Origin: an uncultured Dorea sp.
GTDB lineage: Bacteria > Bacillota > Clostridia > Lachnospirales > Lachnospiraceae
DNA: 64,000 bases
NCBI GenBank assembly: GCA_947388185.1
Contig: CANDQP010000001.1
Span: 17,604 to 81,603 of the forward strand
Reading direction: 5' to 3'
Shown: piece by piece, positions 12,627 to 44,591 of the stretch
Layout: every line of letters starts with the position of its first letter
Numbering within the stretch: the first letter of the stretch is position 1
The notes under the pieces: generated by a model
What the model saw: the letters and a program-made list of their open reading frames with translations, nothing else
What the model was told of the DNA's origin: nothing
Databases searched by the model: none
Program-made: the position numbers and the translations under genes

Positions 12627-12671
12627 TCTGACTCTCCGCCGGTTGTGCAGACTTCCTGGACGCAGCTGTCC

Positions 12672-14074: not shown

Positions 14075-14800
14075 ATGAACATAGCAGTAGTAGAAGACAG
14101 CAGGCGGGAGGCAGAAGAGTTGATCCGGTTTCTGGAACAATTTGGCAAGAAGCATGGCTGTGATCTGAGAATTTCATATTATATGAATGGGGAGGATTTT
14201 CTTGCGTCCCTTGGGAAAAATGATTATACAGCGGTATTCTTAGATATTTTCCTGGGGAAGATGAGCGGAATGGAGGCTGCCGGGCGGCTGTGGGAATATA
14301 ATCCGCAGTGTCAGATCATATTTCTGACATCGAGCAGAGAGCATATCCGGCAGGCATTCCAGGTACATTGTTTTGATTATATAGATAAGAAGGATTTCAC
14401 TTGTGAGCGGATCTTCGAGGTGATGGAAGACCTTAGAAGGAAGCTTCCTTCCCTGAACCGGTATCTGGAATTTGTCAGCGGGAACCGGTCTGTACGCCTT
14501 CCGATGAATAAGATCCAGCACGTGCTTTCAGACAATAATTACACGGTATTCGTGATGGAGGACGGGAAGGAGTACCGATACAGGATTCCCTTTGGCAATA
14601 TCTTAGAGCTGATGGAACCGGCAGAGAATTTCCTGAATTGCAACCGCGGTGTGCTGCTGAATATGAATGATATCGTGAAGGAAGAGGCGGATGTGTATGT
14701 GATGAAGAGCGGGCAGCGTTTCCCGATCCGAAGATTGGACCGTGCGCTGATCAAGGACCGGTATCATCAGTATCAGTTTGCCAAATTAGAGGAAATGTGA
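14075..14800 (+). CDS. LytTR-family response regulator (REC + LytTR DNA-binding domain)
   Basis: 241 aa. It has a REC domain (VFLDIFLGKMSGMEAA) and a C-terminal LytTR region (IQHVLSDNNYTVFVMEDGKEYRYRIPF...FLNCNRGVLLNMNDI). Confidence 0.9.
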   Translation: MNIAVVEDSRREAEELIRFLEQFGKKHGCDLRISYYMNGEDFLASLGKNDYTAVFLDIFLGKMSGMEAAGRLWEYNPQCQIIFLTSSREHIRQAFQVHCFDYIDKKDFTCERIFEVMEDLRRKLPSLNRYLEFVSGNRSVRLPMNKIQHVLSDNNYTVFVMEDGKEYRYRIPFGNILELMEPAENFLNCNRGVLLNMNDIVKEEADVYVMKSGQRFPIRRLDRALIKDRYHQYQFAKLEEM

Positions 14801-14811
14801 GGAAGAACGGT

Positions 14812-16146
14812 ATGGAAGATATATTAAGCTATTTATTATATTGTTCAATAATAATTCCTTTGATTCCGCTGTGTTTCTATCCTGTGCAGGGATATATTAA
14901 GAGCCGTATGCCTGTCTTGATCGTGAAGATCATTCTGGCGCTTTCAGCGGCGGCAGTGTTGCTGGCGCTGATCGGAAGCTTCATAATTCCCCTGCCCAGT
15001 CAGACGGATTATGTGTTGGCTCCTGTTGGTATCTATTGTTTCTATCTATATAACAGGGAAGTGAAGATCTTATTTACCAAGAAATTATTCGTGTTTCTCA
15101 CAGCCTGTGTGGTAGGCGGATATTCGTTTTTATTTGCCACGGTGGCTGACTATACGATACATCCGACCAGTAATTATCTGAATTTTTCAACAGAAGCGCT
15201 GACCGTGCAGATTCTCATCCTTGCCGCGGCAGATGTAGTCCTGTACCGGCCGTTATCCAAATATCTTGGATGGGTAATCTCGAATCTGCATGAAGAGGCG
15301 ATATGGAAGAGGGTGTGGATCTTCCCGGCGCTGTTTTTCGCGGCGACCTTTTGTATGTTTCCGCGGAAGTACAGCACCATGTATGTGTGGAAAGTTAGAA
15401 AATTGTATCCGGTAGCCTTGAGTCTTTTTGCTTTTTTGGGTATTCTGATCTATTTCCTGTTCTATGTGGTCGCATATACATATGTGCAGAAGCAGAAGAC
15501 GGAGATTGCTAACCGTATGCTCGCCATGCAGGGGACGCAATATCAGCAGCTGCTGCGGACGGTGGAGGAGAACAGCCGGATCCGGCATGATTTCCGGCAT
15601 CAGCTTATTGTGATCGCAGAGCTGGTGGGGCAGAAGGAATATGAGAAGCTTGAAGAATATGTCCGTAAATATATCGACGACGGGCAGGCCGAGGTGAAGC
15701 TGTATTCTTATTCGGCTGCGGTGAATGCGCTGATCTCGTATTATGAGTCTGTCTGCATGAGGAGGGGGATCCGGACGGAATTCGCGGTGTCTCTGCCGAA
15801 CCGGCTGCCTGTGTCGGATCAGGACTTCTGCGTGATGCTGGGGAATCTGCTTGAGAATGCAATAGACGGGAGCGGGGAGCTGGAAGATCCGTACATCTGC
15901 CTGAAAATCGGGCAGACATCGTCGAATATGCTGGCGGTCAAGGTAATGAATCCGTGTCAGGGAGAGCTGGTCAGGGAGAACGGGCATTATCGTTCCACCA
16001 AGAGGGATGGATACGGACAGGGATTGGAATCTGTGAACCTGATTGCAGAGAAATATCAAGGCGTGATGGAGATCCTGGCGGATGGGAAGCTATTCACCGT
16101 TAAGGTGCTGCTGCAGATACCGGGCAGGAGTGCAGGCAGTTCCTAA
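14812..16146 (+). CDS. AgrC/HPK10-type sensor histidine kinase (multi-TM sensor + GHKL ATPase)
   Basis: The track ORF starts at GTG 14797. ATG 14812 is preferred because a GAGGAAG RBS lies 6 nt upstream. About 6 TM helices are followed by the H-box RHDFRHQL and N-box LGNLLENAIDG. It overlaps or abuts the response regulator stop (14798-14800). Confidence 0.85.
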   Translation: MEDILSYLLYCSIIIPLIPLCFYPVQGYIKSRMPVLIVKIILALSAAAVLLALIGSFIIPLPSQTDYVLAPVGIYCFYLYNREVKILFTKKLFVFLTACVVGGYSFLFATVADYTIHPTSNYLNFSTEALTVQILILAAADVVLYRPLSKYLGWVISNLHEEAIWKRVWIFPALFFAATFCMFPRKYSTMYVWKVRKLYPVALSLFAFLGILIYFLFYVVAYTYVQKQKTEIANRMLAMQGTQYQQLLRTVEENSRIRHDFRHQLIVIAELVGQKEYEKLEEYVRKYIDDGQAEVKLYSYSAAVNALISYYESVCMRRGIRTEFAVSLPNRLPVSDQDFCVMLGNLLENAIDGSGELEDPYICLKIGQTSSNMLAVKVMNPCQGELVRENGHYRSTKRDGYGQGLESVNLIAEKYQGVMEILADGKLFTVKVLLQIPGRSAGSS

Positions 16147-16175
16147 GGTTCTGGTTTTTGGAGAGGAGAGAAGAG

Positions 16176-17432
16176 ATGGATACATTTCTAGTGAATACGG
16201 TTATTTTCCTGGCACTGGTGGTGGTGTTCGGTTATTTGAACGAGAAGGTGACGCGGTTCACCCATGAGATCGCATTAATGTTGTTTGCAGTGATACTTGG
16301 CGGGGCGTTGGCGGTATTTGGCGCCGTCTCTAAGGGGACGGGGGCCGTATCGCAGATACTTGAAGAGGTTCAGTTCTTTAATCTGGAGGGATTCCTGATC
16401 GAAGGTGTCTTATGCTTTATGCTGTTCGCGGGCTCCTGTCATATGAAGCTTCTGGATTTTAAGAAGCATGCGAGGGCGATCTCGCTTCTAGCGGTGGGGG
16501 CTACATTTCTTGGCGCCGTGTTCTACGGAGTGATCTTCTATGGCGCCGGGAAGCTTCTGGGGCTTACTCTTACGCTTCCGGTCTGTCTGATGTTCGGGAG
16601 TATCGTTGCGCCTACGGATCCGATCGCCGCGACCAGTATCCTGAAGAAGTTCCATCTGCCGCCTGGGATCAGCTTCATCATCGAGGGAGAGTCTCTTCTG
16701 AACGACGGGATGGGAGTGGCTCTTTTTATCTTCTTCTCAGGGATGGTCACGGCCGAAGGAAGCGGCGGTTTCTTTGCCGTCATGGCGAAGGAGCTTCTCG
16801 GAGCTGTAGTTGTGGGGATACTTGTGACGGCGGTCTGTTTCCCCATATTCAGCCATACGAAGGATGAGTCAAGGCAGATCTTCACCAGTCTGCTGGCGGT
16901 GTCGCTGGCGTATGTACTGTGTGAGGCCTTCGGATTCTCCGGGGCGATCGCCTCTGTTGTCTGCGGCGTTTTGTTCTCTGCGCTTCGCAACCGGTCGGAG
17001 CAGAAGGGAGCGCCCCTTATGCTTAAGCAGTTCGATATCTTCTGGGGGATTCTGGATACGCTGCTGAATTCGATCCTGTATGTCATGCTTGGCCTGTCAT
17101 TTATACATATCCTGCAGATGCCGCATGTATTGCTCTTGTCGGTACTGGCGGTTGCCGCCAACCTGATCGGGCGGACGGGCAGCCTTGGCGCGGCGTCGCT
17201 GTTCATCGGCCCGCTGCCGGACGGGTATCGGAAAGGGCAGTTTATCAGGCTGCTGACCTGGGGAGGCCTTAGGGGAGGCCTGTCGGTAGCGCTCGCTATG
17301 AGTACCCAAGGAATCGTCCCCGATGAGATCTATCATGTGATCCTGGGCGGGACATATGCGGTGGTATTCTTCACGACGATCGTTCAGGGCATGACGATGC
17401 GCAGGGTGTACGAGAATATTCAGAGGAGCTAA
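16176..17432 (+). CDS. CPA1/NhaP-type Na+(K+)/H+ antiporter
   Basis: ATG 16176 follows a GGAGAGGAGAG RBS; the track starts at TTG 16158. The protein is polytopic and carries IVAPTDPIAATSIL, a CPA1 signature. Confidence 0.85.
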   Translation: MDTFLVNTVIFLALVVVFGYLNEKVTRFTHEIALMLFAVILGGALAVFGAVSKGTGAVSQILEEVQFFNLEGFLIEGVLCFMLFAGSCHMKLLDFKKHARAISLLAVGATFLGAVFYGVIFYGAGKLLGLTLTLPVCLMFGSIVAPTDPIAATSILKKFHLPPGISFIIEGESLLNDGMGVALFIFFSGMVTAEGSGGFFAVMAKELLGAVVVGILVTAVCFPIFSHTKDESRQIFTSLLAVSLAYVLCEAFGFSGAIASVVCGVLFSALRNRSEQKGAPLMLKQFDIFWGILDTLLNSILYVMLGLSFIHILQMPHVLLLSVLAVAANLIGRTGSLGAASLFIGPLPDGYRKGQFIRLLTWGGLRGGLSVALAMSTQGIVPDEIYHVILGGTYAVVFFTTIVQGMTMRRVYENIQRS

Positions 17433-17436
17433 TCGA

Positions 17437-18996
17437 ATGAAATTATACAAGAAGCTTACGGTGATATTTGCCGTGTGTATCTTAAGCTTCGGAATACTGG
17501 CATGTGCGGCGGGTTTCAAAGCGAATTACCGCCGGGAGCAGGAGCGCAACCAGGCTTATCTGCTTCGGTGTGCGCATCTTGCGGCGAAGATATTTCGGCA
17601 GTCAGACGTGGCAGAGCTTGCGTCAGACGGTGACAGCATTTATTATCAGGACTGTAAAAGAGAGATGGACCAGATTCAGAAGGAAATGGGATTAAAGTAT
17701 GTCTATACCTATGTCCCCTCTGAGGATGGGAGGTCGCTGACGGTCGCAATGATCTCGGGAATGACAGAGGATACCGGGTGGAAGCCGGGACAGATCGTGG
17801 AAGAAGAGGTACCTTCGGAGGCGCTTCATGTATATGAGGGAAGGGAAGAGAGCGGCTTTCGGATCGTCAGGAATCAATATGGCTATGTGGCGACCGCGTA
17901 CTGTCCGGTCTATGGGCCGGACGGAAGGATCCAGGCAGTAACGGGCGCGGATCTGGAACGCCTGGAGGTTGTGTCTGCGTATTTCAGGGAGGTCAGATGG
18001 GTATCCGCATGGATTCTTGCAGGCTGCGGGGTACTGTTCTTCCTGCTTCGGTACTTAAGCCGGCACTGTGTGATCCGTCCTGTCGTAGAATTGTCGGAGC
18101 ATATGGGACACTTCGTAAGAGACAGGGAGGAAGGGAGAGAATTTGCACGGCTCGCGGTCAAGAGCCGGGATGAGATCGGGCAGATGACCGAGACATTTAA
18201 CCAGATGGCGGAAGAGCTTGCATACTATATAAAGCAGACGGCAGATATGGCGGCTGCGGCGGAGCGCAAGAGGGCCGAGATGGAAGCCGCAAAGCGCATC
18301 CAGGAGGCAAGCCTGCCGGATGGAGATGACCCATATAAGGACGATCCCCGCTTCAGCCTCTATGCCGGTATGAAGGCGGCGAGACAGGTCGGGGGTGACT
18401 TCTATGATCATTTCAAGATATCCGATGACCGGCTTGCCACCGTGATCGGGGATGTCTCCGGCAAGGGGATCACGGCGGCGCTGTTCATGATGCGTGCCAT
18501 GACATTGATAAGAGAGCGGACACTGGAAGGAAGCGCTCCCTCCCGGATACTGGAGCAGGCCAATCAGGAGCTATGCGTCAGAAATCCATCGGGAATGTTC
18601 GTCACAGTATTCATCGGGATTCTGAACCTGAACACCGGAAGATATAGCTTCGCCAGCGCCGGTCACAATCCGCCTTACCTGTGCCGCGGTAATTTTGAAG
18701 CCATTCGCCTTGAATCAGGAGTCCCGTTAGGACTGTTTGAAGACGAAGAATATGTAAGCGCCGACCTGGAACTGAATTCCGGCGACAGCCTGTTCCTATA
18801 CACAGACGGCATAACCGAAGCCATGAACCGGGGGAAAGAACTATGGGGAGAAGTACGGCTTAAGGAGACATTGAATCTGCATCAAGATAAAACATGCGCC
18901 GAACTGCTCCATATGATTGACCATGCTGTAGCCGAGTTCGCAGGCGATGCAGAGCAGGCCGACGATATCACCATGCTCTGCCTGAAATATAATTGA
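17437..18996 (+). CDS. membrane-bound sensor phosphatase: TM - extracytoplasmic domain - TM - HAMP - PP2C/SpoIIE domain (RsbU/SpoIIE-like)
   Basis: 519 aa, starting 4 nt after the antiporter stop. It has HAMP DEIGQMTETFNQMAEEL and PP2C/SpoIIE motifs GGDFYDHF, IGDVSGKGITAALFM, AGHNPPY and TDGITEA. Confidence 0.85.
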   Translation: MKLYKKLTVIFAVCILSFGILACAAGFKANYRREQERNQAYLLRCAHLAAKIFRQSDVAELASDGDSIYYQDCKREMDQIQKEMGLKYVYTYVPSEDGRSLTVAMISGMTEDTGWKPGQIVEEEVPSEALHVYEGREESGFRIVRNQYGYVATAYCPVYGPDGRIQAVTGADLERLEVVSAYFREVRWVSAWILAGCGVLFFLLRYLSRHCVIRPVVELSEHMGHFVRDREEGREFARLAVKSRDEIGQMTETFNQMAEELAYYIKQTADMAAAAERKRAEMEAAKRIQEASLPDGDDPYKDDPRFSLYAGMKAARQVGGDFYDHFKISDDRLATVIGDVSGKGITAALFMMRAMTLIRERTLEGSAPSRILEQANQELCVRNPSGMFVTVFIGILNLNTGRYSFASAGHNPPYLCRGNFEAIRLESGVPLGLFEDEEYVSADLELNSGDSLFLYTDGITEAMNRGKELWGEVRLKETLNLHQDKTCAELLHMIDHAVAEFAGDAEQADDITMLCLKYN

Positions 18997-19019
18997 AAAG
19001 AACACAAGGAGGATTCACC

Positions 19020-19340
19020 ATGACAATCACAATGAAAACAGAAGGCACCGCTGCCACGCTCCACGTAGAGGGCTGGCTTGATACCCAGTCTTCCCCTGAT
19101 CTTGGGAAGGCGGTCAAAGCGCTCCCGGAGGAGACGGCCGCCCTGATACTGGATTTTAAGAAGCTGGAGTATATCTCATCCTCCGGCCTTCGGGAAGTAG
19201 TAGCGGCATATAAGAAGATGAAGGATAAAAACGGCACATTCTCTGTGATCCATGTAGGGAACGAGGTCATGGATGTGTTCCGTCTTACCGGGTTTGACAA
19301 GAAACTGGATATCAGAAGCGCAGGAGAGGTGATAAGATGA
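19020..19340 (+). CDS. STAS-domain protein (anti-sigma-factor antagonist family, SpoIIAA/RsbV-like)
   Basis: ATG 19020 follows an AAGGAGG RBS; the track starts at TTG 18993. It has the conserved phosphorylatable-serine motif LEYISSSGLREVV and the C-terminal VFRLTGFDK. Its stop overlaps the NRPS start (ATGA at 19337-19340). Confidence 0.85.
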   Translation: MTITMKTEGTAATLHVEGWLDTQSSPDLGKAVKALPEETAALILDFKKLEYISSSGLREVVAAYKKMKDKNGTFSVIHVGNEVMDVFRLTGFDKKLDIRSAGEVIR

Positions 19341-22300
19341 GAGATGATTTTGCATATTACGGCGATATAGTCAGGGAGCCGGAGCTGGATTCCTGCCTGC
19401 TTGCCGATCATGACGGGACGGGAATGACGGAAGCGGAATATATACACAGTGTGAAGAAGGAAGCGGCGCTGGCGGCGGCTTCTTTTTGTATGGAACGGGA
19501 ATGGGATATGATAGAGTTGGCAAAATCAGTCCTGATGCTTGTATTATCGAAGTATACCGGCCATACGGCGGCGCTGGCGGCAGTTGCGGCAAAGGGGCGG
19601 TTGTTCCCGGTATTCCTTGACAGCGAGAAGACGCCGGATTTCCGGGAGTATTATGGCGGCTATATCAGGCAGGCGGAAGATAGCAGGATGCATGATGAGA
19701 TTCCCTTTGAAGAGCTTCGGGCGGAATTCGGATGGAGTTCTTTTCCTTATCTTACGAGTGAAGCCGGATTCTATGATTCCTTCTCGCTGGGGGATTATCA
19801 GGACAGCAAGGCGAAGCTTGGGATCTGCACTGTAATTGCAGGGCGCAAGCTTGTAGTGAAGGTAAAATATAACAGAGAAATATACGATCAGAAGACGATA
19901 GAGCGATTCCTTGAATCCTTTGATGCGGTCCTTATGCAGGTTGCAAAGGGAGAAGCCCGGATCGCGGAGTTGTCTCTGCTTACGGATAACTTGTCGGCAG
20001 AATTGGATGCATTGAACCGGACGGAATGCCCTTATGATGAGAATCGCACGGTGGTAGATCTGATCCAGGAGGCAATCGGGCGCTATGGTGACCGGACGGC
20101 GGTAGTCTATCGGGACCATAAGATGACCTATCGGCAGTTCGGGGAGATGACGGACCGGATCGCATCTTACATCCATTCCAGAGGAATCGGAAGGGAGGAT
20201 GTGGTGGCGATCCTGATACCCAGATGTGAGTATATGCCGGCTGCAGCTTACGGCGTAGTGAAAGCAGGAGCGGCTTATCAGCCGTTGGATCCAAGCTATC
20301 CGCCGGAGCGGCTGAAATTCATGATGGAGGATGCGAAGGTAAGGCTTCTGATCGCGGAGGAAGCGCTACTTCTTTTGGTGCCGGATTATGAGGGGGAGGT
20401 GCTGACGATAGAGGAGCTTGCCGGACTGCCGGACGCTGCGGCGGCAGAGGAGCTTAAGCCATGGTATCCGTCTAAGGAGGATCTGTTTATTCTGCTCTAC
20501 ACCTCGGGAACGACGGGGCTTCCCAAGGGTGTGATGCTGGAGCACGGCAACCTTGCGGCCTTCATCCACTGGTATCGGAATTATTATCATATGACGGAAG
20601 ACAGCAGGGCGGCGGCGTATGCTTCCTTTGGTTTTGACGCCAACATGATGGATACGTATCCGGCCCTGGCAAGCGGCGGGCAGGTACATATTATTGAGGA
20701 AGAGATCCGGCTTGAGCTTCTCGCGCTTCGGAATTACTTCGAGAAGAATCAGATCACCCACAGCTTCATGACGACCCAGGTGGGAAGACAGTACGCCAGC
20801 CTGTTCCCGGATGCCAGGTATCCGAAATACCTGTCTGTGGGCGGGGAGACGCTTGTCCCTGTCGCTCTGCCGGAATACAGATTCTATAATGTCTATGGGC
20901 CGACGGAGTGCACCATCCTTACGACGGCATTTCCGATGGACCGGATGTATCAGAACGTTCCGATCGGCAGCGCCAATCAGAATATCCGGCTGTATGTGAC
21001 CGACCGTCACGGGAAGCGGCTTCCGGTCGGTGTTCCGGGCGAGCTGTGGATTGCCGGGCCTCAGGTGGGAAGAGGATATCTGAACCGTCCGGAGAAGACG
21101 GAAGAGGTCTTTATCAGGAATCCGTTCTCTCAGGATGAGGGTTACCGGAGAGTCTACCGTTCCGGTGACATCGTTCGTTTCCTTCCGGATGGAAATATAG
21201 AGTTCATCGGAAGGAATGACGCCCAGGTGAAGATCCGGGGATTCCGCATCGAGCTTACGGAGGTGGAAGGAGTTATCCGCGAATTCGGCGGGATCAGGGA
21301 TGTTACGGTTGCAGCCTTTGACGAGGCGGGCGGCGGCAAGTTCATTGCGGCTTACGTTGTCTCTGACGATCCGGTGGATATCGGCGCGCTGTATGCATTT
21401 ATCCGGGAGAGGAAGCCGCCTTATCTGGTTCCGGCGGTCACCATGCAGATTGATCAGATCCCGCTCACCCAGAACCATAAGGTCAATAAGCGCGCCCTTC
21501 CGGTACCTAAGAAAGAGGCGGAAGAGATCGTAAGGCCGAAGGATGAGGTTCAGCAGAGGATCTATGACTGTCTGGCGGAGATTCTGGGGTATGAGGAGTT
21601 CGGGATCACGGAGGATATTCATGAGGCGGGGCTTACATCCATCGGCGCGCTTCGTTTTATCGTGATGCTGTCCAGGGAATTCGGGGTTACGGTCAATATC
21701 AGGGATCTGACAGAGTATTCTACCATAGAGAAATTGGGGGCATATATAGAGAATGCAGAGAGGGAAGGCGCAAGGGAGATCCGGGAGAAATATCCGCTGA
21801 CACAGACGCAGCTTGGAATCTATGTGGAATGTATGATGAATCCGGGGTCAGTCTTCTATAATCTGCCGGGGAGCTTCACATTCTCAAGGGAGGTTCCGTT
21901 CAGTATAGAGAGTCTTGGCAGAAGCATAAGGAAGGTGATAGACGCCCATCCTGCCATGAAGTGCAGTATCCGGACGGATGAGAACGGAGATACCTTCATG
22001 TATCCGAATGAGGACAGGGAGGTTGTGATCGAGCAGTTTGCCGGGACGGAAGAAGAGTATGAGACGTTCTTTCAGAACTTTGCGAAGCCCTTTGACTTGG
22101 CAGAGGGGCCGTTGTATCGGATTGCCACATTTCTGACCAGGGAACATCTGTATCTGGTGACGGATTTCCACCATATCATTAGCGACGGGACATCGATCGC
22201 AGTCTTTGCCGAAGAGCTTGACCGTGTCCTCACCGGAGAGGAGCCGGCAGGAGAGGACTATTCGCAGTTTGACATAGCCGTAAGCGAGGAGAAGGCAAGA

Positions 22301-25300
22301 GAGAGCGAGGCGTATCAGAAGGCCAGGGCATACTATGATTCCGTATTTGCCGGGGTGTCCGAATGTACGGTTGTGGACCGTGACGTCTATGACGAGGAGG
22401 AGAGCTGCGGCTTCTGCCGCCGCTACAGCAGCAGACTGTCCCCCAAGCGGGTGGAGAGTTACTGCCGGAAGCATAAGATCACGCCGAATGTGTTCTTCTT
22501 CTCTGTGATGGGATATGTGCTGGGGAAATACGCCGGGAGCGAGGAGGCCTGCTTTACGACGATCTATAACGGAAGAGGCGACGGCCGGACTGCGGGTACG
22601 GCCGGGATGCTGGTGAAGACGCTGCCGGTGCTGTGTATGCTTGAGGAACAGACGGAGATCCCGGATTATGTAAGCCGTGTGCAGGAACAGCTCTTGTCTT
22701 CCATGGCTAATGATATCTACTCCTTTGCAGAGATCAGCAGGGCATATGGGATCCGTCCGGAGATCATGTTCGTCTACCAGGGGGATGATTTCGTGGAGTT
22801 TGAGATCGGCGGGCAGAAGACCATCTTTCGCGAGGCGGTGTCCGATCGGGCGAAGGCGGCGATCTCTGTGAATATCTTCCTGGAGAACGGGAAGTACCGG
22901 TATGAGTTCGAATACCGGAAGAATATGTTCAGCGAAGCGTTCATAGAAGATCTGTACGAGGTCTTGACGGAGGCGGCAGTAAGCTTCCTTGGGGCGCTGA
23001 CCCTTGGAGACGTGAACATCCTGTCGGCAAGGCAGGAGAGGCTGATCGAGAGCTTCAACGAGACGGACTATCCGGTGGAGCCGGTCAGTGTGAATCGGTT
23101 ATTTGAAGCGTGGGTGAAAAAGGCACCTCAAAGGACGGCGGTGATCGCAAACGGAGAGAAACTGACCTATGAAGAACTGAATCATCTGGCCAACCGGCTT
23201 GCCCATTCCCTGATCGGGCTTGGAGTGAAAGAAGATACCATCGTGGGCCTGATCTTAGAGAGAAGCGTCAACGTCTATATCACCAGGCAGGGAATCCTGA
23301 AGGCAGGCGGCGCATTCCTTCCGCTGGTGCCGGAGTACCCGGATGACAGGATTGATTTCTGCCTGACGGATGCCGAGTGTCCTTATGTGATCACCACGGA
23401 GCAGATCAGGGATGAGAGAAGCGCCTTGTGGGCAGGCAAGCCTTACCGGGTATTGACGGTGGAGGAATTATTGAGGGCAGAAGAGGGAAGGGAGGAGGAA
23501 TGGGAGTCTGATCCCGGACTTGTGATTCAGACCTCTTCTCTGGCATACTGCCTCTACACCTCGGGATCCACGGGACGGCCCAAGGGTGTGCTGATCGAAC
23601 ACGGCAATCTCTGTAACTTCGTCAACTCCAATCCAAAGAATCCGGAGAGCACCAGTTATACGGCCAATGGAACCGTATCCCTTGCGCTGGCTTCTATCTC
23701 TTTTGATGTGTCGGTCATGGAAGAGTTCATACCGCTGTGCAACGGTATGACCATCTGTATGGCCAACGAGGAGGAGATCCACAATCCGCTTGCCCTTGCC
23801 GAACTTCTGATCAAGAATAAAGTGGACATCATGAAGTGTACGCCGTCATATATGACGAATATCATAGAGGTTCCCCAGATGCGGGAGGCTCTTGCCGGAG
23901 TGAAGGCATTTGTCATAGGGGCGGAGCCCTATCCGCAGACACTCTACGGTAAGATGCGAAGGGTCAATCCGACGGCTGTCATCGGCAACAGCTACGGGCC
24001 GACGGAGTGTACCGTGAGCTGTACCACGAAGATATTGGAGAATGACGGCGAGATCACGATCGGCGGTCCGCTCACGAATATGAAGCTCTATGTGGTTAAT
24101 CGGAAGAATAAGCTTCTCCCGGTGGGAGTAAGCGGCGAGCTGATCATATGCGGAGCCGGTGTGGGGAGAGGTTATGTGAAGCTTCCGGATAAGAACAGGA
24201 AGTCCTTCTTTAGGCTTCGCGGGCTTCCTGCCTATCACAGCGGGGATCTTGTCAAATGGAACCGAAAGGGCGAGATCGTGTTCCAGGGGAGGCTTGATAA
24301 TCAGGTGAAGCTTCGAGGACTTAGGGTGGAGTTAGACGAGGTTGAGGGTGCGATCAACACATTTGACGGAGTGAAGACAAGCAAGGTGATCGTAAGGAGT
24401 AACGGAAGCGAAGAGTATCTTGCAGGATATTTTACGGCGGAGAAGGAGATTGACCTTGCCATGCTCACAGAGCATTTAAGATCGAAACTCACCCATTATA
24501 TGGTGCCGAATGCCCTGATGCAGCTTGAGAAGATGCCCCTTACCGTCAACGGAAAGATTGACAAGAAGCAGCTTCCCAAGATCACTTACCAGGCGGCAGA
24601 AAGAGAATATGTGGAGCCTGTTACCGAACTTCAAAGGGAACTGTGCGGCAAATTTGCCGAGATCCTGACTCTTGACAGGGTAGGGATTACGGATAACTTT
24701 TTCGAGATCGGGGGCACATCCTTAAGTGCGACGAAGATTGTCATGTATGCGATCACAGAGGGGTATCCGGTGGTTTATAAGGATGTCTTCGCCAACCCAA
24801 CGCCGAAGAAACTTGCTGAATTCATTGAAGGGAAAGGGGTTCAGAAGACAGAGTGTAAGGATGCGGCGTCGGATATCAAGGAGTATGATTATTCTGCAAT
24901 CTGCAGGCTGCTCTCAAGGAACTGCAGCGAGAATGTGGAGCAGATCAAAGAAGGAAGCCTTAGCAATATCCTGCTTACGGGCGCGACCGGATTCTTAGGC
25001 ATCCATGTGCTGCGTGAATTCCTGTTAGGCTATAAGGGCAGGGCATACTGTCTGGTGCGGAAAGGGAATTATCCATCCAGCGAAAAAAGGCTGATGAATA
25101 TGCTGATGTATTACTTTGATACGCCGTTTCTGGATGCGTTTGAGGAACGGATCGTGTGTATCGACGGCGATATTACGGACCGGGATATGGTGCTAAGCCT
25201 TGAGGCGCTTCCATTTGCCACGGTGATCAACTGCGCGGCCTGTGTGAAGCATTTTGTGAAGGACGATCTGTTGGATCGGATCAATGTGGAGGGCGTCAGG

Positions 25301-26059
25301 AATATCACAGAGCTCTGCAGGCGGGCGGGCAGGCGTCTGGTACAGATTTCAACCACGTCCGTGGCTGGAGAGGGCAATGCGCATACGGTGCCGTCTACGA
25401 AGCTCATGCGGGAAGACGAACTGTACTTCGGCCAGATCTTGGAAAATGATTATATACGGACGAAGTTCCTGGCAGAACGTGTGATACTGGAGGCATGTGC
25501 AAAGGGCGAAGTAGAGGCGAAGATCATCCGTGTGGGGAATCTCATGAGCAGGAGATCAGACGGAGAGTTCCAGATTAATTTCGTAACCAATGGGTTCATG
25601 CGTGCCCTGGCGGCATACAAGACTCTGGGATGCTTCCCAATGGGAATGATGCATGCGCCGGCGGAGTTCTCGCCCATTGATTCCACGGCTCTGGCAGTGC
25701 TGAAGCTTGCGGCAAGCGATGGTGGTTTTACTGTTTTCCATGCTTATAACAGCCACCGGATCTATATGTCGGATGTGATCTATGCCATGCGCTCCTATGG
25801 GTTTGCCATCCGTATCGTACCGGATGACGAGTTCGAGAGGGTTCTTCATGAGACGGCGAAGGAAGGAGAGAAGAGCGATGCGGTTCTCGGCCTGATCGCC
25901 TATGCATCGGATGACGAGGAGCGGCGCTATGAACTGAAGTCGGATAACTTGTTTACAGCAGAAGCCCTCTATCGTCTTGGATACAAATGGCCGATCACGG
26001 ACGACCGGTATCTTGAGAATGCGATCGGTGCGTTGGATGGGCTGGAGTTTTTTGGATAA
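19337..26059 (+). CDS. bimodular non-ribosomal peptide synthetase, (partial C)-A-T-C-A-T-R with terminal thioester reductase
   Basis: 2240 aa. Approximate domains by motif:
- N-terminal C-lobe-like region without HHxxxDG: 19337-20011.
- A1 (20054-21511): LYTSGTTGLPKG, YGPTE, GELWIAGPQVGRGY, YRSGD, GRNDAQVKIRGFRIEL.
- T1 (21539-21751): EAGLTSIG.
- C (21785-23041): HHIISDG.
- A2 (23099-24571): LYTSGSTGRPKG, YGPTE, GELIICGAGVGRGY, YHSGD, GRLDNQVKLRGLRVEL.
- T2 (24608-24826): FFEIGGTSLSA.
- R (24959-26056): LLTGATGFLGIHVL, YIRTK. Confidence 0.95.
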   Translation: MRDDFAYYGDIVREPELDSCLLADHDGTGMTEAEYIHSVKKEAALAAASFCMEREWDMIELAKSVLMLVLSKYTGHTAALAAVAAKGRLFPVFLDSEKTPDFREYYGGYIRQAEDSRMHDEIPFEELRAEFGWSSFPYLTSEAGFYDSFSLGDYQDSKAKLGICTVIAGRKLVVKVKYNREIYDQKTIERFLESFDAVLMQVAKGEARIAELSLLTDNLSAELDALNRTECPYDENRTVVDLIQEAIGRYGDRTAVVYRDHKMTYRQFGEMTDRIASYIHSRGIGREDVVAILIPRCEYMPAAAYGVVKAGAAYQPLDPSYPPERLKFMMEDAKVRLLIAEEALLLLVPDYEGEVLTIEELAGLPDAAAAEELKPWYPSKEDLFILLYTSGTTGLPKGVMLEHGNLAAFIHWYRNYYHMTEDSRAAAYASFGFDANMMDTYPALASGGQVHIIEEEIRLELLALRNYFEKNQITHSFMTTQVGRQYASLFPDARYPKYLSVGGETLVPVALPEYRFYNVYGPTECTILTTAFPMDRMYQNVPIGSANQNIRLYVTDRHGKRLPVGVPGELWIAGPQVGRGYLNRPEKTEEVFIRNPFSQDEGYRRVYRSGDIVRFLPDGNIEFIGRNDAQVKIRGFRIELTEVEGVIREFGGIRDVTVAAFDEAGGGKFIAAYVVSDDPVDIGALYAFIRERKPPYLVPAVTMQIDQIPLTQNHKVNKRALPVPKKEAEEIVRPKDEVQQRIYDCLAEILGYEEFGITEDIHEAGLTSIGALRFIVMLSREFGVTVNIRDLTEYSTIEKLGAYIENAEREGAREIREKYPLTQTQLGIYVECMMNPGSVFYNLPGSFTFSREVPFSIESLGRSIRKVIDAHPAMKCSIRTDENGDTFMYPNEDREVVIEQFAGTEEEYETFFQNFAKPFDLAEGPLYRIATFLTREHLYLVTDFHHIISDGTSIAVFAEELDRVLTGEEPAGEDYSQFDIAVSEEKARESEAYQKARAYYDSVFAGVSECTVVDRDVYDEEESCGFCRRYSSRLSPKRVESYCRKHKITPNVFFFSVMGYVLGKYAGSEEACFTTIYNGRGDGRTAGTAGMLVKTLPVLCMLEEQTEIPDYVSRVQEQLLSSMANDIYSFAEISRAYGIRPEIMFVYQGDDFVEFEIGGQKTIFREAVSDRAKAAISVNIFLENGKYRYEFEYRKNMFSEAFIEDLYEVLTEAAVSFLGALTLGDVNILSARQERLIESFNETDYPVEPVSVNRLFEAWVKKAPQRTAVIANGEKLTYEELNHLANRLAHSLIGLGVKEDTIVGLILERSVNVYITRQGILKAGGAFLPLVPEYPDDRIDFCLTDAECPYVITTEQIRDERSALWAGKPYRVLTVEELLRAEEGREEEWESDPGLVIQTSSLAYCLYTSGSTGRPKGVLIEHGNLCNFVNSNPKNPESTSYTANGTVSLALASISFDVSVMEEFIPLCNGMTICMANEEEIHNPLALAELLIKNKVDIMKCTPSYMTNIIEVPQMREALAGVKAFVIGAEPYPQTLYGKMRRVNPTAVIGNSYGPTECTVSCTTKILENDGEITIGGPLTNMKLYVVNRKNKLLPVGVSGELIICGAGVGRGYVKLPDKNRKSFFRLRGLPAYHSGDLVKWNRKGEIVFQGRLDNQVKLRGLRVELDEVEGAINTFDGVKTSKVIVRSNGSEEYLAGYFTAEKEIDLAMLTEHLRSKLTHYMVPNALMQLEKMPLTVNGKIDKKQLPKITYQAAEREYVEPVTELQRELCGKFAEILTLDRVGITDNFFEIGGTSLSATKIVMYAITEGYPVVYKDVFANPTPKKLAEFIEGKGVQKTECKDAASDIKEYDYSAICRLLSRNCSENVEQIKEGSLSNILLTGATGFLGIHVLREFLLGYKGRAYCLVRKGNYPSSEKRLMNMLMYYFDTPFLDAFEERIVCIDGDITDRDMVLSLEALPFATVINCAACVKHFVKDDLLDRINVEGVRNITELCRRAGRRLVQISTTSVAGEGNAHTVPSTKLMREDELYFGQILENDYIRTKFLAERVILEACAKGEVEAKIIRVGNLMSRRSDGEFQINFVTNGFMRALAAYKTLGCFPMGMMHAPAEFSPIDSTALAVLKLAASDGGFTVFHAYNSHRIYMSDVIYAMRSYGFAIRIVPDDEFERVLHETAKEGEKSDAVLGLIAYASDDEERRYELKSDNLFTAEALYRLGYKWPITDDRYLENAIGALDGLEFFG

Positions 26060-26073
26060 AGAAAGAGGATTCT

Positions 26074-27888
26074 ATGGAGAGAAATGAAAAATTGATCAAG
26101 ACCAAGCTTTGGCAGTATCTCTTGCCGAGTATTATGATGACTGCCGCGCTTCAGCTGGGGAATATCGTGGATACCATGCTTGTGGGCAATATCCTGGGGG
26201 CGGATGCCATGTCGGCCGTCAAGGTGGGAATGACCATAGACCATATCATGGAAATCCCGGGATATGTCCTTGGGGTGGGCGGAAGCGTCGCGGCGGGAAT
26301 CCTGCTTGGGAAACGGAAGAGGGATGAGGCGAACCGTGTATTCTCCGTGACGCTGACGGTGAGTATGCTGTGCGGGATATTATTCGCGCTGCTTTCGGTC
26401 ACATCGCCGATGCTGGCAAAGGCACTCACCGGGGGCGGCTCCCTCTTGAGGGATGTGGAGAGATTCGTATTCGTGACTCTGCTTGGAGCGCCGGTTATCA
26501 GCCTTGCGCTGCAGTTTATGAGCTATGTGGCAGTGGACAATAACCCGTCGGTAGCGTCTGCCTACGTGATCGTATCCAATGTGATCAACCTGGCGCTGGA
26601 TTATCTGATTCTTAAGTTCACGGCGCTTGGGACGGCGGGAGCCGCATTGTCGACGGTGCTGGGGTACGGGATCGCGATGCTGGTGCTGATCCGCTATCTT
26701 CGATCTCCCAAGCGGATGCTTCGGTATGTGATGCCCTTTGGGGGCGGGAAGGACAGGAAGCATCCGGGGGAAGACGCGAAGCAGGGGCGAAGGGAAGGCC
26801 AGGCAGCGGGCGCTTTTGTACTGGCTTTCTCAACGGGAGTGCCTACGCTTCTGTATATGATCTTCCTGACCCTTAAGGATCTGGGACTGAATACCATGAT
26901 CGTGCGTCTGATCGGGAATGACGCGATGGCGGTCTATACCGTGTGTACCAATGTGGTACTTCTGGTAGAACTTCTGGTGGGCGGGATCATCGGTACCATC
27001 GCCTCGATCGGCGGGGTGATCTACGGGGAGAAGGATTACTTCGGAATCCGAAGCCTTGTGAAGCATGTGCTGCTGTACAGCTATGCCGTACTTGCCGTGT
27101 TACTGGTTATCCTGCTGGTATTTCCGGAAGCTGTGGTTGCATTATTCGGTATCACAGGCGGCGCTCTTTTGGAGATGGCGGCGGCGGCCCTTCGGATCTT
27201 CGTGTGTTCTCTGCCGTTCTATCTGCTGAACAAATTTATGACAACCTACTATCAGAGTACGGAGAAAACGAAGTTATCGGGGATCGTGACATCGCTGCAG
27301 ACTTGTGTGGCGATCCTTCCGCTTGCCGTTGTATTTCTCTTTGCAGCAAGGGCGGCTGGGCTTGATCTTCTGAACGCGCTGATGGCGGCATTCGTGTTCA
27401 GCGAGATCCTTACGGCTGTGACCGTATGCATCTACCGGAAGATGAAGTATAAGGGACAGGGATTCCTGCTTCTTCCTAAGAGAGAAGAGGAGGCAGTCTA
27501 TGATATCTCGGTGGTCGCGGACTTAGAAGAGGCGGAGCGTGTTCCAAGAGAGATCATGGAGTTCTGCCAGGCGCATCAGGTAGATGCGGGGAGGGCGAAC
27601 CTCCTTGCGGTGGCGGCGGAGGAGATGCTGGTGAATATTATCCGGTACGGCGGGAAGAAGGCGGATACGATAGATATCAATCTGTGTATTACGGAAGACA
27701 CCCTGCTGTTCCGGTTAAGAGACAACGGAGTCCCGTTCGATCCTACGGATTATTCGGCGGATACCGGAGAGTATGAGATCCATGGGATCGAGGTGGTGAA
27801 GAATATCACGGACCGGATGCAGTACATGCGGGTGCTGGATCTGAATCATACAGTAATAGAGATGAAAAGAGGATGCAGGGAAAGTTGA
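26074..27888 (+). CDS. MATE-family efflux transporter fused to a C-terminal RsbW/SpoIIAB-like HATPase (anti-sigma-factor kinase-type) domain
   Basis: 604 aa, starting 14 nt after the NRPS stop with an AAGAGGA RBS. Roughly aa 1-455 are a 12-TM MATE-like protein. Roughly aa 470-604 (nt 27481-27885) read LLAVAAEEMLVNIIRYG...LLFRLRDNGVPFDPTDY...GIEVVKNITDRMQY. This resembles the N-box and G1-box of HATPase_c_2 kinases and is a paralogue of the stand-alone protein at 29636-30025. Confidence 0.8.
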   Translation: MERNEKLIKTKLWQYLLPSIMMTAALQLGNIVDTMLVGNILGADAMSAVKVGMTIDHIMEIPGYVLGVGGSVAAGILLGKRKRDEANRVFSVTLTVSMLCGILFALLSVTSPMLAKALTGGGSLLRDVERFVFVTLLGAPVISLALQFMSYVAVDNNPSVASAYVIVSNVINLALDYLILKFTALGTAGAALSTVLGYGIAMLVLIRYLRSPKRMLRYVMPFGGGKDRKHPGEDAKQGRREGQAAGAFVLAFSTGVPTLLYMIFLTLKDLGLNTMIVRLIGNDAMAVYTVCTNVVLLVELLVGGIIGTIASIGGVIYGEKDYFGIRSLVKHVLLYSYAVLAVLLVILLVFPEAVVALFGITGGALLEMAAAALRIFVCSLPFYLLNKFMTTYYQSTEKTKLSGIVTSLQTCVAILPLAVVFLFAARAAGLDLLNALMAAFVFSEILTAVTVCIYRKMKYKGQGFLLLPKREEEAVYDISVVADLEEAERVPREIMEFCQAHQVDAGRANLLAVAAEEMLVNIIRYGGKKADTIDINLCITEDTLLFRLRDNGVPFDPTDYSADTGEYEIHGIEVVKNITDRMQYMRVLDLNHTVIEMKRGCRES

Positions 27889-27955: not shown

Positions 27956-29596
27956 TTATAGTTCTTCTACTTTACAGAAATGTTCTTTCGTTTTCTTGTC
28001 ATAACTGATTCCGACTGCCAGGATCCGTCCTGTGTATTTAGGAGTTTCACCCAGCTTTCCATGGAAACGCAAGGCATATTTCTTATCACGGATCTGCCGG
28101 ATGGCATCTTCAGGAGTCCTGCCGACTTTCAGTTCGAGGATGAAGGCATCCATATTCTTGCGGACAGGATAGAAGATAAAATCCACAAAACCTTCCCCTG
28201 CCTTGTCTTCCCGCTCTACATGGTAGCTGTCCCTTGCAGCCAGATAGACAAGGTTAACGATTGCCGACAGTTCAATCTCGCTGTTGTAAGAGAAAATCGG
28301 AGATTCCGTGTCGTGGGCATATTTCAATATCATGGCCATTTCCTGGGTGTTGCCGGTCAGGGTTGCATGCAGCATCTTTTTGGAGGCATTTGCCAGATTG
28401 TAAATGTAGCCCAGAGATTTCTCTTTCTTCATCATAGCGGCGAAACTGTCCATCAATTCCTGATTAGGGATGTACACAAGTCCGTCTTTGTAGGTCAAAA
28501 GACCATAGGTCACCATAGCCGAATAGATCTCATCCTTCGTCTCAAGCTGCATAGAAATGGCCGCATACTCCTGGATGTCGGCGGGGATTCCCTCACCTGC
28601 AAAGAGGAGCGCCAGGTCATCCTGTATATTGTCTATATCATTCTTAATATAACTGAATACGGAATCATAGATTCCGGAACTGGTCCAGTAATTGTGTAAT
28701 TGATTATTCGTCAGGGCGCATACGATAGAACGCGGATTGTACATTCGTTCCCCGCCGGCGGTGTAATAGCCGTCGTACCAGGTGCGCAGATCCCCGCGTG
28801 TGAACCTAACCGGATCGGTAGTCTGCTGATAGATATCGTAGAGCCGGTCGACCTCCAGATTAGAGAAACCGAAGTATTCACTGAAACGTTCAGTCGTTGC
28901 CATATGGTATTCGAGGAACATATTCAGTTCCGAGCCTTCTGAATATTTGGCAATTGGCAGGATACCGGTCATATAGACAAGCTCTGCGTAAATATTGTCT
29001 TTCAGGAGTGATTTTAAAAAGAGAAGATATTCCTTCCTGTCCGGATCCGTAATAAAATTCATATGGAATACGGCGTCCCACTCATCCAGGACGAAGACGA
29101 AGCGATGTCCGGTCTTCTGATAGACCAGAGATAATATATTCCAGATAGAATGTGCCGGATCTATCTTGCATTCCGGAAAACATTCGGATAAGTCTGTTTT
29201 CAGGTCTTGAAGGATCCAGTTGATATAAGTATCGTATGAGCGGCAGTTTTCCGGCATCCTGCTGAAATCAATATAGATAACATCATAGTGGTTCAGATAT
29301 TCGAGGTAGCCTTTGCAGGAATTCTTCTCAAGTTTTACGGCAATCTCCGGTGATGCGATCTGAAGCTTGCCGAATATCTCGCCAGAGTCCATCGCTTTGC
29401 CAAAGAACGCCCCGATCATATTGGCCATGACGCTTTTCCCAAACCGGCGCGGCCGGGTCAGGCAGAAGAAGCGCTGGCTTGTGCCAAGCGCAGGAATGAG
29501 TTCGGCGATCAGGGCAGTCTTGTCTACAAAGTATCTTTCTGATGCGATTGCACGGTAAGAATCGAAAGGCACCCTGCTGTTTAAATATAATCCCAT
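27956..29596 (-). CDS. AAA-ATPase-like domain protein with C-terminal PD-(D/E)XK nuclease-like domain
   Basis: 546 aa with a GGAAGGAGAA RBS. The N-terminus YFVDKTALIAELIP...FFCLTRPRRFGKS matches the AAA-ATPase_like pattern. The C-terminus GFVDFIFYP...ILELKVGRT...QIRDKKY matches a PDDEXK_9-like pattern. It is more AT-rich than its neighbours (about 42-45% GC in hand-counted lines). Confidence 0.8.
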   Translation of the reverse strand: MGLYLNSRVPFDSYRAIASERYFVDKTALIAELIPALGTSQRFFCLTRPRRFGKSVMANMIGAFFGKAMDSGEIFGKLQIASPEIAVKLEKNSCKGYLEYLNHYDVIYIDFSRMPENCRSYDTYINWILQDLKTDLSECFPECKIDPAHSIWNILSLVYQKTGHRFVFVLDEWDAVFHMNFITDPDRKEYLLFLKSLLKDNIYAELVYMTGILPIAKYSEGSELNMFLEYHMATTERFSEYFGFSNLEVDRLYDIYQQTTDPVRFTRGDLRTWYDGYYTAGGERMYNPRSIVCALTNNQLHNYWTSSGIYDSVFSYIKNDIDNIQDDLALLFAGEGIPADIQEYAAISMQLETKDEIYSAMVTYGLLTYKDGLVYIPNQELMDSFAAMMKKEKSLGYIYNLANASKKMLHATLTGNTQEMAMILKYAHDTESPIFSYNSEIELSAIVNLVYLAARDSYHVEREDKAGEGFVDFIFYPVRKNMDAFILELKVGRTPEDAIRQIRDKKYALRFHGKLGETPKYTGRILAVGISYDKKTKEHFCKVEEL

Positions 29597-29635: not shown

Positions 29636-30025
29636 CTATGCGAGAAGTGTTGTCTTGATTCTGAGTACCAAGACATTCCTGGAGTCCTCATACGCATAGC
29701 TGACATCGTCCACGAATCCAAATGCGATCAGTCTCCCAAGTCCCCCGATCTGTGTATCCAGGTCATAATCGTCGGGATCTGCAGGGTTATCGAGAGGGTT
29801 GAAGGGTCTTCCCTCATCACGGAAAGTCATGACGATCGGTCCTGTAGCCTCAAGGGTAATTTCGACAAGCCCGGCCTCCCCTTCATAGGCATAGGAACAG
29901 ATGTTGACGAATACTTCCTCGGCGGCGAGGCATAATTTCTTCTTCGAGGCATCCGGGATATCGGGATGTTCCATGATAAGCGTCTGTACGAGCTTAAGAT
30001 TATCAAGCCGGGCTGTTATGGTCAT
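29636..30025 (-). CDS. stand-alone RsbW/SpoIIAB-like HATPase (anti-sigma regulatory factor, Ser/Thr kinase type)
   Basis: ATG 30025 is preferred; the track uses TTG 30034. LCLAAEEVFVNICSYAY...MTFRDEGRPFNPLD...GGLGRLI are N, G1 and G2-like boxes. It starts about 20 nt (ATG 30025; 11 nt if the TTG at 30034 is used) downstream of the hybrid kinase stop, so the two are probably co-transcribed. Confidence 0.75.
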   Translation of the reverse strand: MTITARLDNLKLVQTLIMEHPDIPDASKKKLCLAAEEVFVNICSYAYEGEAGLVEITLEATGPIVMTFRDEGRPFNPLDNPADPDDYDLDTQIGGLGRLIAFGFVDDVSYAYEDSRNVLVLRIKTTLLA

Positions 30026-44225: not shown

Positions 44226-44303
44226 GTTGTGCTTGCACAAGGGCTTATCTTGAGATTGACTGACGAATGGCGCGGGAGTGAATGTCCGAAGTAAAATTTC
44301 CGG

Positions 44304-44339: not shown

Positions 44340-44591
44340 TAAAATGTATGAACACGCTGACGAGACGAGTAGGCTGGGAAAGGAATCGCAGAGAGAGAAG
44401 CCGCAGGCTGCAAGCTTCTTATTCCGGAACCTTCTGAAAACTACCTCTGAGTGGCTGCAAAACAGCCCGGTGATTCCGTTATCATCATGAATGAAGCGGC
44501 TTTGGTATGGATGGATGATATACAGGGCAATCAGGGTGGAACCGCGAGAGTAACTCGCCCCTTACAGTAGATCTGTAAGGGGTATTTTTTT
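44340..44591 (+). promoter_or_regulatory. T-box riboswitch leader, threonine specifier
   Basis: It has an AGAGAGA stem-I element and a specifier region GAAAACUACCUCUGAG carrying adjacent Thr codons ACU and ACC (44440-44445). The T-box sequence AATCAGGGTGGAACCGCGAG lies at 44529-44548. The terminator CCCCTTACAG-tagat-CTGTAAGGGG (44558-44582) is followed, after a two-nucleotide spacer, by a T-run (44585-44591). thrS is downstream. Confidence 0.8.

Follow-up and report, generated by a model that had tools for sequence, protein, structure and literature searches.

Known partner-switching systems and the locus under study

In the Bacillus systems RsbU/RsbV/RsbW-sigmaB and SpoIIE/SpoIIAA/SpoIIAB-sigmaF, partner switching is built on a PP2C phosphatase, a single-domain STAS protein with a phosphorylatable serine and a kinase with N, G1 and G2 boxes. 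Sigma-independent partner switching is known for SypE/SypA of the Vibrio fischeri syp locus, BtrU/V/W of the Bordetella type III secretion system, and HsbR/HsbA and SiaA/B/C/D of Pseudomonas. The sigma-independent systems are also covered by a review of STAS-only proteins (PMC8256260). Here we describe a locus in a 64,000-nucleotide stretch of DNA from an uncultured Dorea sp. (contig CANDQP010000001.1; the whole stretch is referred to below as the window), in which genes for a PP2C phosphatase, a STAS protein and two RsbW-like domains accompany a nonribosomal peptide synthetase (NRPS) gene, one of these domains being fused to the C-terminus of a MATE transporter. Based on sequence comparisons and structure models, we lean, with little better than even confidence, toward reading this set as a partner-switching module that works without a sigma factor in the service of a peptide-aldehyde NRPS cluster, with the cluster's own exporter as its terminal partner.

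The locus shares with the Bacillus systems the PP2C phosphatase, the single-domain phospho-serine STAS protein and a kinase with all three boxes (kin2, below), and the fold of the transporter's C-terminal domain (CTD) is closest to those of RsbW and SpoIIAB. It differs from them in that no sigma factor was found in the operon or the window and none is co-conserved in related loci, in that the second RsbW-like domain has a degenerate G2 box and is fused to the MATE transporter, and in that the module lies inside an NRPS cluster. With SypE/SypA, BtrUVW, HsbR/HsbA and SiaABCD it shares a PP2C, kinase and STAS or STAS-like set located inside the controlled locus and a non-sigma output, and the PP2C-kinase fusions seen in relatives of our locus have counterparts in SypE and HsbR; in contrast to those systems, the candidate output here is a transporter with its own anti-sigma-like domain and concerns natural-product export or synthesis, the PP2C protein has no REC domain, and the lineages belong to the gut Clostridia. 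Mycobacterium tuberculosis UsfX (anti-sigmaF), with its antagonists RsfA and RsfB, offers a further parallel as an RsbW-fold protein that binds STAS antagonists, and reportedly it is not a kinase of those antagonists, which makes it a precedent for a non-kinase STAS binder of this fold; UsfX, however, is soluble and sequesters sigmaF, whereas the CTD is pump-fused with no sigma partner in sight. The SLC26/SulP-STAS transporters are a conceptual mirror image, being secondary transporters with a cytoplasmic C-terminal domain from the STAS/anti-sigma world, but the likeness is one of analogy only: our protein combines MATE with HATPase_c_2 rather than SulP with STAS, and the STAS protein is separate and phosphorylatable.

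The NRPS itself resembles Staphylococcus aureus AusA (aureusimine/phevalin) and the peptide-aldehyde NRPSs of gut Clostridia, namely the clusters of Guo et al. 2017 and ruminopeptin, as cited in PMC8518294, in its A-T-C-A-T-R organization with a terminal reductase and, for the latter group, in its origin from gut Lachnospiraceae/Clostridia. A preliminary description of this DNA had been aware of no account of such wiring for NRPS clusters of the dipeptide-aldehyde type; in keeping with this, our literature searches, which did not take in the maps that Guo et al. 2017 give of their clusters, yielded no description of a partner-switch/NRPS/MATE-CTD arrangement. The review PMC8256260 describes neither a transporter-fused anti-sigma-like domain nor a link to NRPS clusters, and the literature searched on gut peptide-aldehyde clusters gives no role for STAS, PP2C or the MATE CTD.

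Components of the module

The genes on which the argument turns are as follows (all positions are those of the window).
17437-18996, plus strand: HAMP-PP2C phosphatase, 519 aa (Pfam SpoIIE and HAMP)
19020-19340, plus strand: STAS protein, 106 aa (Pfam STAS, PF01740)
19337-26059, plus strand: NRPS, 2240 aa (Pfam AMP-binding twice, PP-binding twice, Condensation, NAD_binding_4)
26074-27480, plus strand: body of the MATE efflux transporter, residues 1 to ~469 (Pfam MatE twice)
27481-27888, plus strand: SpoIIAB/RsbW-like CTD of the MATE transporter (Pfam HATPase_c_2, E=2.5e-12)
29636-30025 (alternatively to 30034), minus strand: kin2, stand-alone RsbW-type kinase, 129 aa (Pfam HATPase_c_2, E=4.8e-18)

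Searches with Pfam hidden Markov models (HMMs) bore out the domains that the preliminary description had proposed for the phosphatase, the STAS protein, the NRPS, the exporter and the second kinase. The exporter (26074-27888, 604 aa) carries MatE (PF01554) in two stretches followed by HATPase_c_2 at residues 481-596. Its AlphaFold2 (AF2) model matched MATE structures (PfMATE 6fhz, E=9e-13, TM-score 0.83 on the target), and the protein has the two MatE repeats and the 12-transmembrane (TM) fold of this family. Its score against an NCBIfam MATE subfamily was 102 bits with a cut-off of 147, which marks it as a divergent MATE member, and NCBIfam holds no model for the MATE-HATPase_c_2 fusion. No TM segment is predicted beyond residue 453, and given the well-established topology of MATE transporters the CTD should be cytoplasmic.

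The relationship of the CTD to anti-sigma factors emerged from profile and structure comparisons. Searches of PDB sequences by phmmer with a single CTD or kin2 sequence gave no meaningful matches; a profile of 39 CTD sequences, however, found RsbW (E=1e-4) and SpoIIAB as its best matches, with the match ending at G1. The AF2 model of the CTD alone had a pLDDT of 91.6, and the 16 best Foldseek matches were all SpoIIAB, UsfX or RsbW (query-normalized TM-scores of 0.61-0.75), mostly in complexes with STAS antagonists or sigma F; the UsfX entries 8ih8 and 8jzt were among the top matches, and the search results also included 6kko, an entry cited for sigma-independent systems. Histidine kinases scored far worse. 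Foldseek with the full-length exporter model returned MATE structures only, and the lid of the CTD was modeled with low confidence. Among 128 family members the residues of the N and G1 boxes are largely kept (E516 in 96%, E517 in 95%, N521 in 72%, D550 in 85% and G552 in 95%), but the G2 box is degenerate and the lid shortened, the window protein having IHGIE instead of GxGxG; at the position of the second G2 glycine, the six most frequent residues of the family do not include Gly. The lid is deleted in loci L021, L023 and L025, and in L025, the one of these that was scanned, Pfam no longer detects the domain. Thus, since the CTD keeps nucleotide-binding residues but does not have the intact N, G1 and G2 set of a kinase, it is probably an anti-sigma-type binding domain that acts as a STAS receptor rather than as a kinase, and it may still bind nucleotide. 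The preliminary description had called the domain an RsbW/SpoIIAB-like kinase; the domain and its fold stand, whereas the degenerate G2 box makes a kinase role less likely.

The STAS protein matched PF01740 with E=1.2e-13 and the NCBIfam model ant_ant_sig with 66.3 bits (cut-off 53.45), and is a single-domain antagonist of the classical kind. The phosphorylatable ISSSGL motif noted earlier is present within EYISSSGLR, where phosphorylation is predicted at Ser54 (codon 19179-19181). All 50 unique STAS proteins linked to these clusters keep the serine that aligns with SpoIIAA Ser58 and RsbV Ser56, and they share the motif [ED]Y[ILV][SAC]S[AS]G[LIV]R; the RsbW stretch in the PDB alignment agreed with the reference sequence used. 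This invariance, which extends to loci where only STAS and the MATE-CTD are present (L022/L028 and others), argues that control by phosphorylation has been retained. The overlap of the STAS stop and NRPS start codons (ATGA at 19337-19340) was exactly as first described, and although the ATGA overlap itself is not universal among relatives, the spacing between the two genes is typically tight in them (-8 to +94 nt).

The second kinase paralogue reported at 29636-30025 is present, but its standing has changed: it appears to be the canonical kinase of the module, with intact boxes and with PP2C fusions elsewhere. In the window kin2 has EE..N, DEG and GGLG, as expected of an RsbW/SpoIIAB-type serine kinase, and kin2-type sequences keep all boxes in alignment (N, AAEE.FVN; G1, D.G; G2, GGLG). 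A homologue search returned only 18 proteins. In L007, L009, L010, L030 and L032 the HAMP-PP2C protein carries a kin2 orthologue at its C-terminus (47-58% identity where measured, in L007, L009 and L010), one lies directly upstream of STAS in L114 and another between two STAS genes in L008; these fusions and adjacencies tie kin2 to PP2C and STAS. In three lineages with otherwise different neighbors (L003, L005/L029 and L113), kin2 orthologues are convergent to the MATE-CTD gene. From these contexts and its intact boxes, we infer that kin2 is the catalytic kinase of the module and propose it as the STAS kinase. A kin2-like kinase (50% identity) and a STAS protein also occur at 754-1652 of L115, among DUF3575, DUF5119 and faint Mfa-like genes and with no NRPS in the stretch covered; distant pairs of this kind are therefore not NRPS-specific and serve other loci.

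The phosphatase is predicted to have TM segments at residues 7-25 and 186-204, followed by a HAMP domain (213-261, E=2e-7) and a SpoIIE/PP2C domain (PF07228, residues 329-518, E=1.3e-52) that covers profile positions 1-191 of 192, as in the SpoIIE/RsbU family of partner-switching phosphatases. Between the TM segments lies an extracytoplasmic part of ~160 aa, a place occupied by a dCache domain in other lineages. Its best NCBIfam match was SiaA, below the cut-off. The distance of 23 nt to the downstream STAS gene was confirmed, and the gap contains an AAGGAGG ribosome-binding site. PP2C orthologues adjoin STAS in L003-L005, L029 and L113 and are fused to the kinase in the five loci listed above. 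This membrane phosphatase is predicted to dephosphorylate the phosphorylated STAS protein.

For the NRPS, the A-T-C-A-T-R domain order proposed earlier was found, with a terminal NAD_binding_4 reductase, but the account needs one correction, namely an N-terminal extension of ~240 residues (19337-20056). This extension holds only the last ~60 positions of a condensation domain (residues 161-222) and looks like a decayed starter-C domain. The best NCBIfam match of the NRPS was AusA, at 1032 bits with an equivalog cut-off of 2500, which sets it apart from AusA proper. We predict a synthetase of a dipeptide aldehyde or pyrazinone. Some relatives are reductase-terminated NRPSs of ~3000 aa with extra modules, three where these were resolved (L030).

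Conservation across related loci

The MATE-HATPase_c_2 fusion was chosen as the search seed because it is the most distinctive gene of the cluster. A word-indexed search found 273 relatives, and both domains were present in 119 of the best 120 (58-99% identity). An exhaustive search of 1.84 billion cluster representatives gave 429 with E <=1e-30; among the best 150, 127 were 560-620 aa long, and single-stretch matches spanned nearly the whole query including the CTD at identities down to 26%, so that at least 127 representatives of 50%-identity clusters share the fusion architecture. Scanning one genome per species produced 23 loci, and a metagenome scan seeded with an alignment of a distant subfamily (A3, 30-40% identical to the window protein, which replaced a 28-sequence alignment, A2, too diverse for metagenome search patterns) added 80 more, with flanks of up to 10 kb around the fusions and with the open reading frames (ORFs) of metagenome loci classed by jackhmmer profiles.

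An orthologous NRPS (55-100% identity) lay immediately upstream of the fusion in all 23 genome loci, 12 of which also had a STAS orthologue immediately upstream of the NRPS; in 8 others an HMM search with E up to 1 found no STAS within 10 kb. Over both sets, 97 of 102 loci had an NRPS ORF directly beside the fusion, the five others being mostly on short contigs, and STAS was present in 51 of 63 evaluable loci (12/19 in the genome set, 26/30 for metagenome loci ordered fusion-NRPS-STAS, and 13/14 for those ordered NRPS-fusion-...-STAS). When redundancy was corrected by single-linkage clustering of the fusions at >=70% identity, 21 lineages remained, with an adjacent NRPS in 19 and STAS in 9 of the 16 evaluable; all five super-lineages (50% identity) have both genes. 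The flanking genes are wholly different between species, and the association is therefore not explained by a larger region inherited in synteny. Identity of the CTD to that of the window protein was similar in loci of the 58-60% group with and without STAS and gave no signal.

At least three gene orders were found: STAS-NRPS-fusion; fusion-NRPS-STAS; and NRPS-fusion-..-STAS-second fusion-..-PP2C-kinase. The last is illustrated by the distant locus L050, in which Pfam-checked genes run NRPS, MATE-CTD, glyoxalase, cyclic nucleotide (cNMP)-binding protein, STAS, second MATE-CTD, GNAT, dCache-HAMP-PP2C and HATPase_c_2 kinase. Sampling seeded with STAS homologues (51-61% identity) added L030, where a PP2C-kinase fusion, STAS and a PPTase precede a three-module, reductase-terminated NRPS, and L032, which is arranged as LytTR response regulator, histidine kinase, PP2C-kinase fusion, STAS, NRPS and MATE-CTD. 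At the other extreme are minimal loci that consist of STAS, NRPS and MATE-CTD only and lack any further RsbW-like partner within 10 kb (L022/L028, L006, L012, L020 and L024). The NRPS and the MATE-CTD thus form a near-invariant core, as judged by gene content, whereas STAS, PP2C and kinase are frequent but not obligatory. The co-occurrence of STAS, PP2C and kinase genes with such NRPS genes, raised earlier as a point to check, holds as to frequency, not as to universality, and the concern that their adjacency might be confined to one strain can be dismissed, since it recurs in ~100 loci in rearranged orders. As in the sigma-independent systems, the module resides in the locus of the non-transcriptional process that it would control and is conserved together with that locus.

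Two paralogous MATE-CTD pumps flank STAS in many distant clusters (L048-L053, L056, L058, L062, L069 and L070), the second fusion lying ~2-3.5 kb after the first, and these clusters also contain accessory glyoxalase, cNMP-binding, GNAT or GH3 genes; in L018 the second pump is at 11756-13492. L025, a Clostridia-type NRPS and MATE-CTD locus, is labeled Myxococcota, probably through an error of metagenome binning or taxonomy.

Search for a sigma factor

The absence of a sigma factor gene from the 64 kb, claimed in the preliminary description, was supported by two approaches: no ORF of >=150 aa in the window contained a Sigma70 Pfam domain, and jackhmmer, with sigF and sigB as seeds, detected no sigma factor among window ORFs of >=60 aa, while as a positive control it recovered the one Pfam-confirmed sigma gene in a related locus. 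Nor did the related loci, with flanks of up to 10 kb, point to a co-conserved sigma factor encoded just outside the region. Sigma-like ORFs occurred in 4 of 112 related loci, were mostly ~160-185 aa long and several kb away, and had no conserved position, so that neither the window nor the related loci provide a cognate co-operonic sigma factor as the sequestered target. Judged from these sequences, no sigma factor is co-conserved with the module across the 112 loci and their flanks of up to 10 kb.

Proposed mechanism and alternative explanations

In the mechanism that we propose, kin2 would phosphorylate Ser54 of the STAS protein, and the PP2C protein would remove the phosphate upon an extracytoplasmic or membrane signal. 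Unphosphorylated STAS would then bind the MATE CTD, as SpoIIAA binds SpoIIAB.ADP, and this binding would turn the export of the peptide aldehyde on or off, perhaps with a coupling of export to the translationally linked NRPS as well. The upstream LytTR two-component system would probably set transcription separately. The preliminary description had likewise suggested that the output may be post-translational control of metabolite synthesis or export, a reading that comparative genomics favors as far as such data can, with the changed roles of kin2 and the CTD given above. Three things make the CTD our candidate for the non-sigma partner of STAS: the anti-sigma fold, the frequent presence of STAS alongside the domain and the existence of minimal loci. 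The more specific proposition, that a phospho-switchable STAS directly gates the transporter through a fused anti-sigma-like pseudokinase domain, and possibly acts also on NRPS carrier domains to couple synthesis to export, is one we put forward tentatively and with rather less confidence than we attach to the module as a whole. Several observations weigh against the exporter as terminal partner. Chief among them, seven of the 16 evaluable lineages keep the CTD with no STAS within 10 kb, so that the domain cannot have a strict need for a STAS protein from its own cluster; L018 has a HAMP-PP2C protein and a canonical kinase downstream of its pumps, and no STAS was detected within 10 kb. The retained N-box and G1 residues of the CTD may confer residual kinase activity, flanks were covered to 10 kb only and distal sigma factors or STAS genes may exist beyond them, and we infer co-transcription of the gene run from its spacing only.

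Two alternatives assign the CTD a different role. It could be an atypical but active kinase whose phosphorylation of STAS signals the state of transport, with the NRPS or another cytoplasmic protein as the STAS target, so that synthesis rather than export is regulated. The preserved N-box Glu/Asn and G1 Asp/Gly would suit such feedback, as would the minimal loci, in which STAS keeps its phospho-serine beside the CTD with no other kinase, and the many loci where the STAS gene extends into the NRPS start or directly up to it; nevertheless, we consider it unlikely, given that G2 is degenerate family-wide and the lid is shortened or, in L021, L023 and L025, deleted, that many lineages have a canonical kin2, stand-alone or PP2C-fused, and that in the fusion-NRPS-STAS order STAS sits at the far end of the NRPS gene. 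Less probable still is a CTD that works independently of STAS, for example as an ATP/ADP energy sensor or a dimerization domain of the pump, while PP2C, STAS and kinase regulate something else in the cluster. Conserved nucleotide-binding residues, the dimeric state of SpoIIAB and RsbW and the 7 of 16 lineages that keep the CTD with no STAS nearby speak for it, but it leaves unexplained why STAS accompanies the MATE-CTD in 51 of 63 loci when, by our own estimate, a few per cent would be expected of a gene with a few copies per genome, why the CTD is the sole candidate partner in minimal loci and why its fold is that of STAS-binding anti-sigma factors.

Classical wiring, in which kin2 or the membrane-tethered CTD is the anti-sigma factor for a distally encoded sigma factor that transcribes the cluster, draws on the presence of all three canonical component types, on the true anti-sigma factors that are the closest structures to the CTD and on the limitation of our view to 10-kb flanks. 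We regard it as improbable, because known systems normally keep the sigma gene in the same operon (rsbVW-sigB, spoIIAA-AB-sigF) and yet none was found in the 64 kb, because the sigma-like ORFs of 4 of the 112 loci are mostly short and not conserved in position, and because the LytTR regulator already offers a transcriptional input. Chance adjacency of unrelated signaling genes and an NRPS in this strain has nothing to recommend it beyond the several STAS, PP2C and RsbW paralogues that Clostridia carry, and recurrence of the set in ~100 loci of many lineages, with varied flanks and gene orders, refutes it for practical purposes.

If the proposed control of the exporter is correct, the outputs of partner switching, sigma factors and a few enzymes so far, would come to include the direct control of a membrane exporter, and a natural pseudokinase-type anti-sigma domain would have been reused as a transporter regulatory module, which would provide a direct functional connection between the two sides of STAS biology, transporters and anti-sigma factors. 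It would also define a large unrecognized class of MATE pumps and give a testable function to an uncharacterized family that spans hundreds of sequence clusters. Peptide aldehydes of gut Clostridia inhibit host proteases (PMC8518294), and control of their release bears on host-microbe chemistry and on activation of the clusters in culture or in heterologous hosts.

Gene run and neighboring genes

The module belongs to a plus-strand run of seven genes (14075-27888) spaced by -4 to +23 nt. Its first three genes, and the genes around kin2, are as follows.
14075-14800, plus strand: LytTR-type response regulator, first gene of the run (Pfam Response_reg and LytTR)
14797-16146, plus strand: membrane GHKL (AgrC-like) histidine kinase with five hydrophobic segments (Pfam HATPase_c_5, E=1.3e-19)
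16158-17432, plus strand: Na+/H+ exchanger (Pfam Na_H_Exchanger, E=7e-40)
27956-29596, minus strand: AAA-ATPase_like/PDDEXK_9 gene, between the MATE gene and kin2
30046-33033, minus strand: hybrid sensor histidine kinase, dCache-HisKA-HATPase-REC, 20 nt upstream of kin2 (Pfam)

A scan for promoters and terminators over the cluster gave site counts at shuffle level, and these therefore provide no evidence on the operon. The run is well conserved in L003 and L004, mouse-gut Lachnospiraceae/Dorea assemblies in which the exporter (604 aa) is 100% identical and the other cluster proteins are 95-100% identical. The GHKL kinase, whose gene overlaps that of the LytTR regulator by 4 nt, is the partner of this regulator, which from its context is the probable transcriptional regulator of the cluster. 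The same pair is found at the same place 5' of PP2C-STAS-NRPS-MATE in L032 (5687-7753) and is divergent in L006, L014 and L018 (429-2608 in L018). Recurrence of this Agr-like pair beside these NRPS clusters in several lineages suggests that their transcription is under the control of a quorum or peptide signal. The Na+/H+ exchanger, kept within the cluster just 5' of PP2C or STAS in L003-L006 and L029, may, to judge by this position, be a source of the ion gradient for the MATE pump.

On the far side of the cluster, the AAA-ATPase/PDDEXK gene (27956-29596) is present in the window and in L004 and missing in the near-identical L003, where kin2 abuts the cluster; by this comparison it is an insertion that varies between strains. 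The hybrid histidine kinase that adjoins kin2 was considered as a core member of the module and rejected, as none lies beside kin2 in L029; it is possibly an extra input, of uncertain membership. A different hybrid kinase is found downstream of the MATE-CTD gene in L008 and L026, and in L026 (11904-14467) a PAS-HisKA-HATPase-REC-Hpt hybrid kinase and a REC protein lie beside the module. Hybrid kinases in this position are reminiscent of the HptB-HsbR input of Pseudomonas, although the PP2C protein here has no REC domain.

Other features of the window

An Rfam scan of the whole window returned nothing at the gathering threshold. A T-box leader at 44348-44565 (plus strand), 5' of thrS (45129-47054), scored 88 bits, just below the Rfam gathering score of 93, and a hairpin-like element at 44198-44273 had spurious miRNA-family matches only. 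Elsewhere, an in-frame TGA at 7523-7525 divides the formate dehydrogenase alpha subunit between two plus-strand ORFs (6467-7525 and 7547-9172), in the context ...CARV-TGA-HAPTVAGL..GSGAMTN, and its neighbors are genes for a formate/nitrite transporter, FdhD and MoeA. The CARV-TGA-HAPTVAGL context is what we take to be the classic selenocysteine site of FdhA, and the ORF pair (6467-9172) is probably one selenoprotein gene and not a pseudogene.

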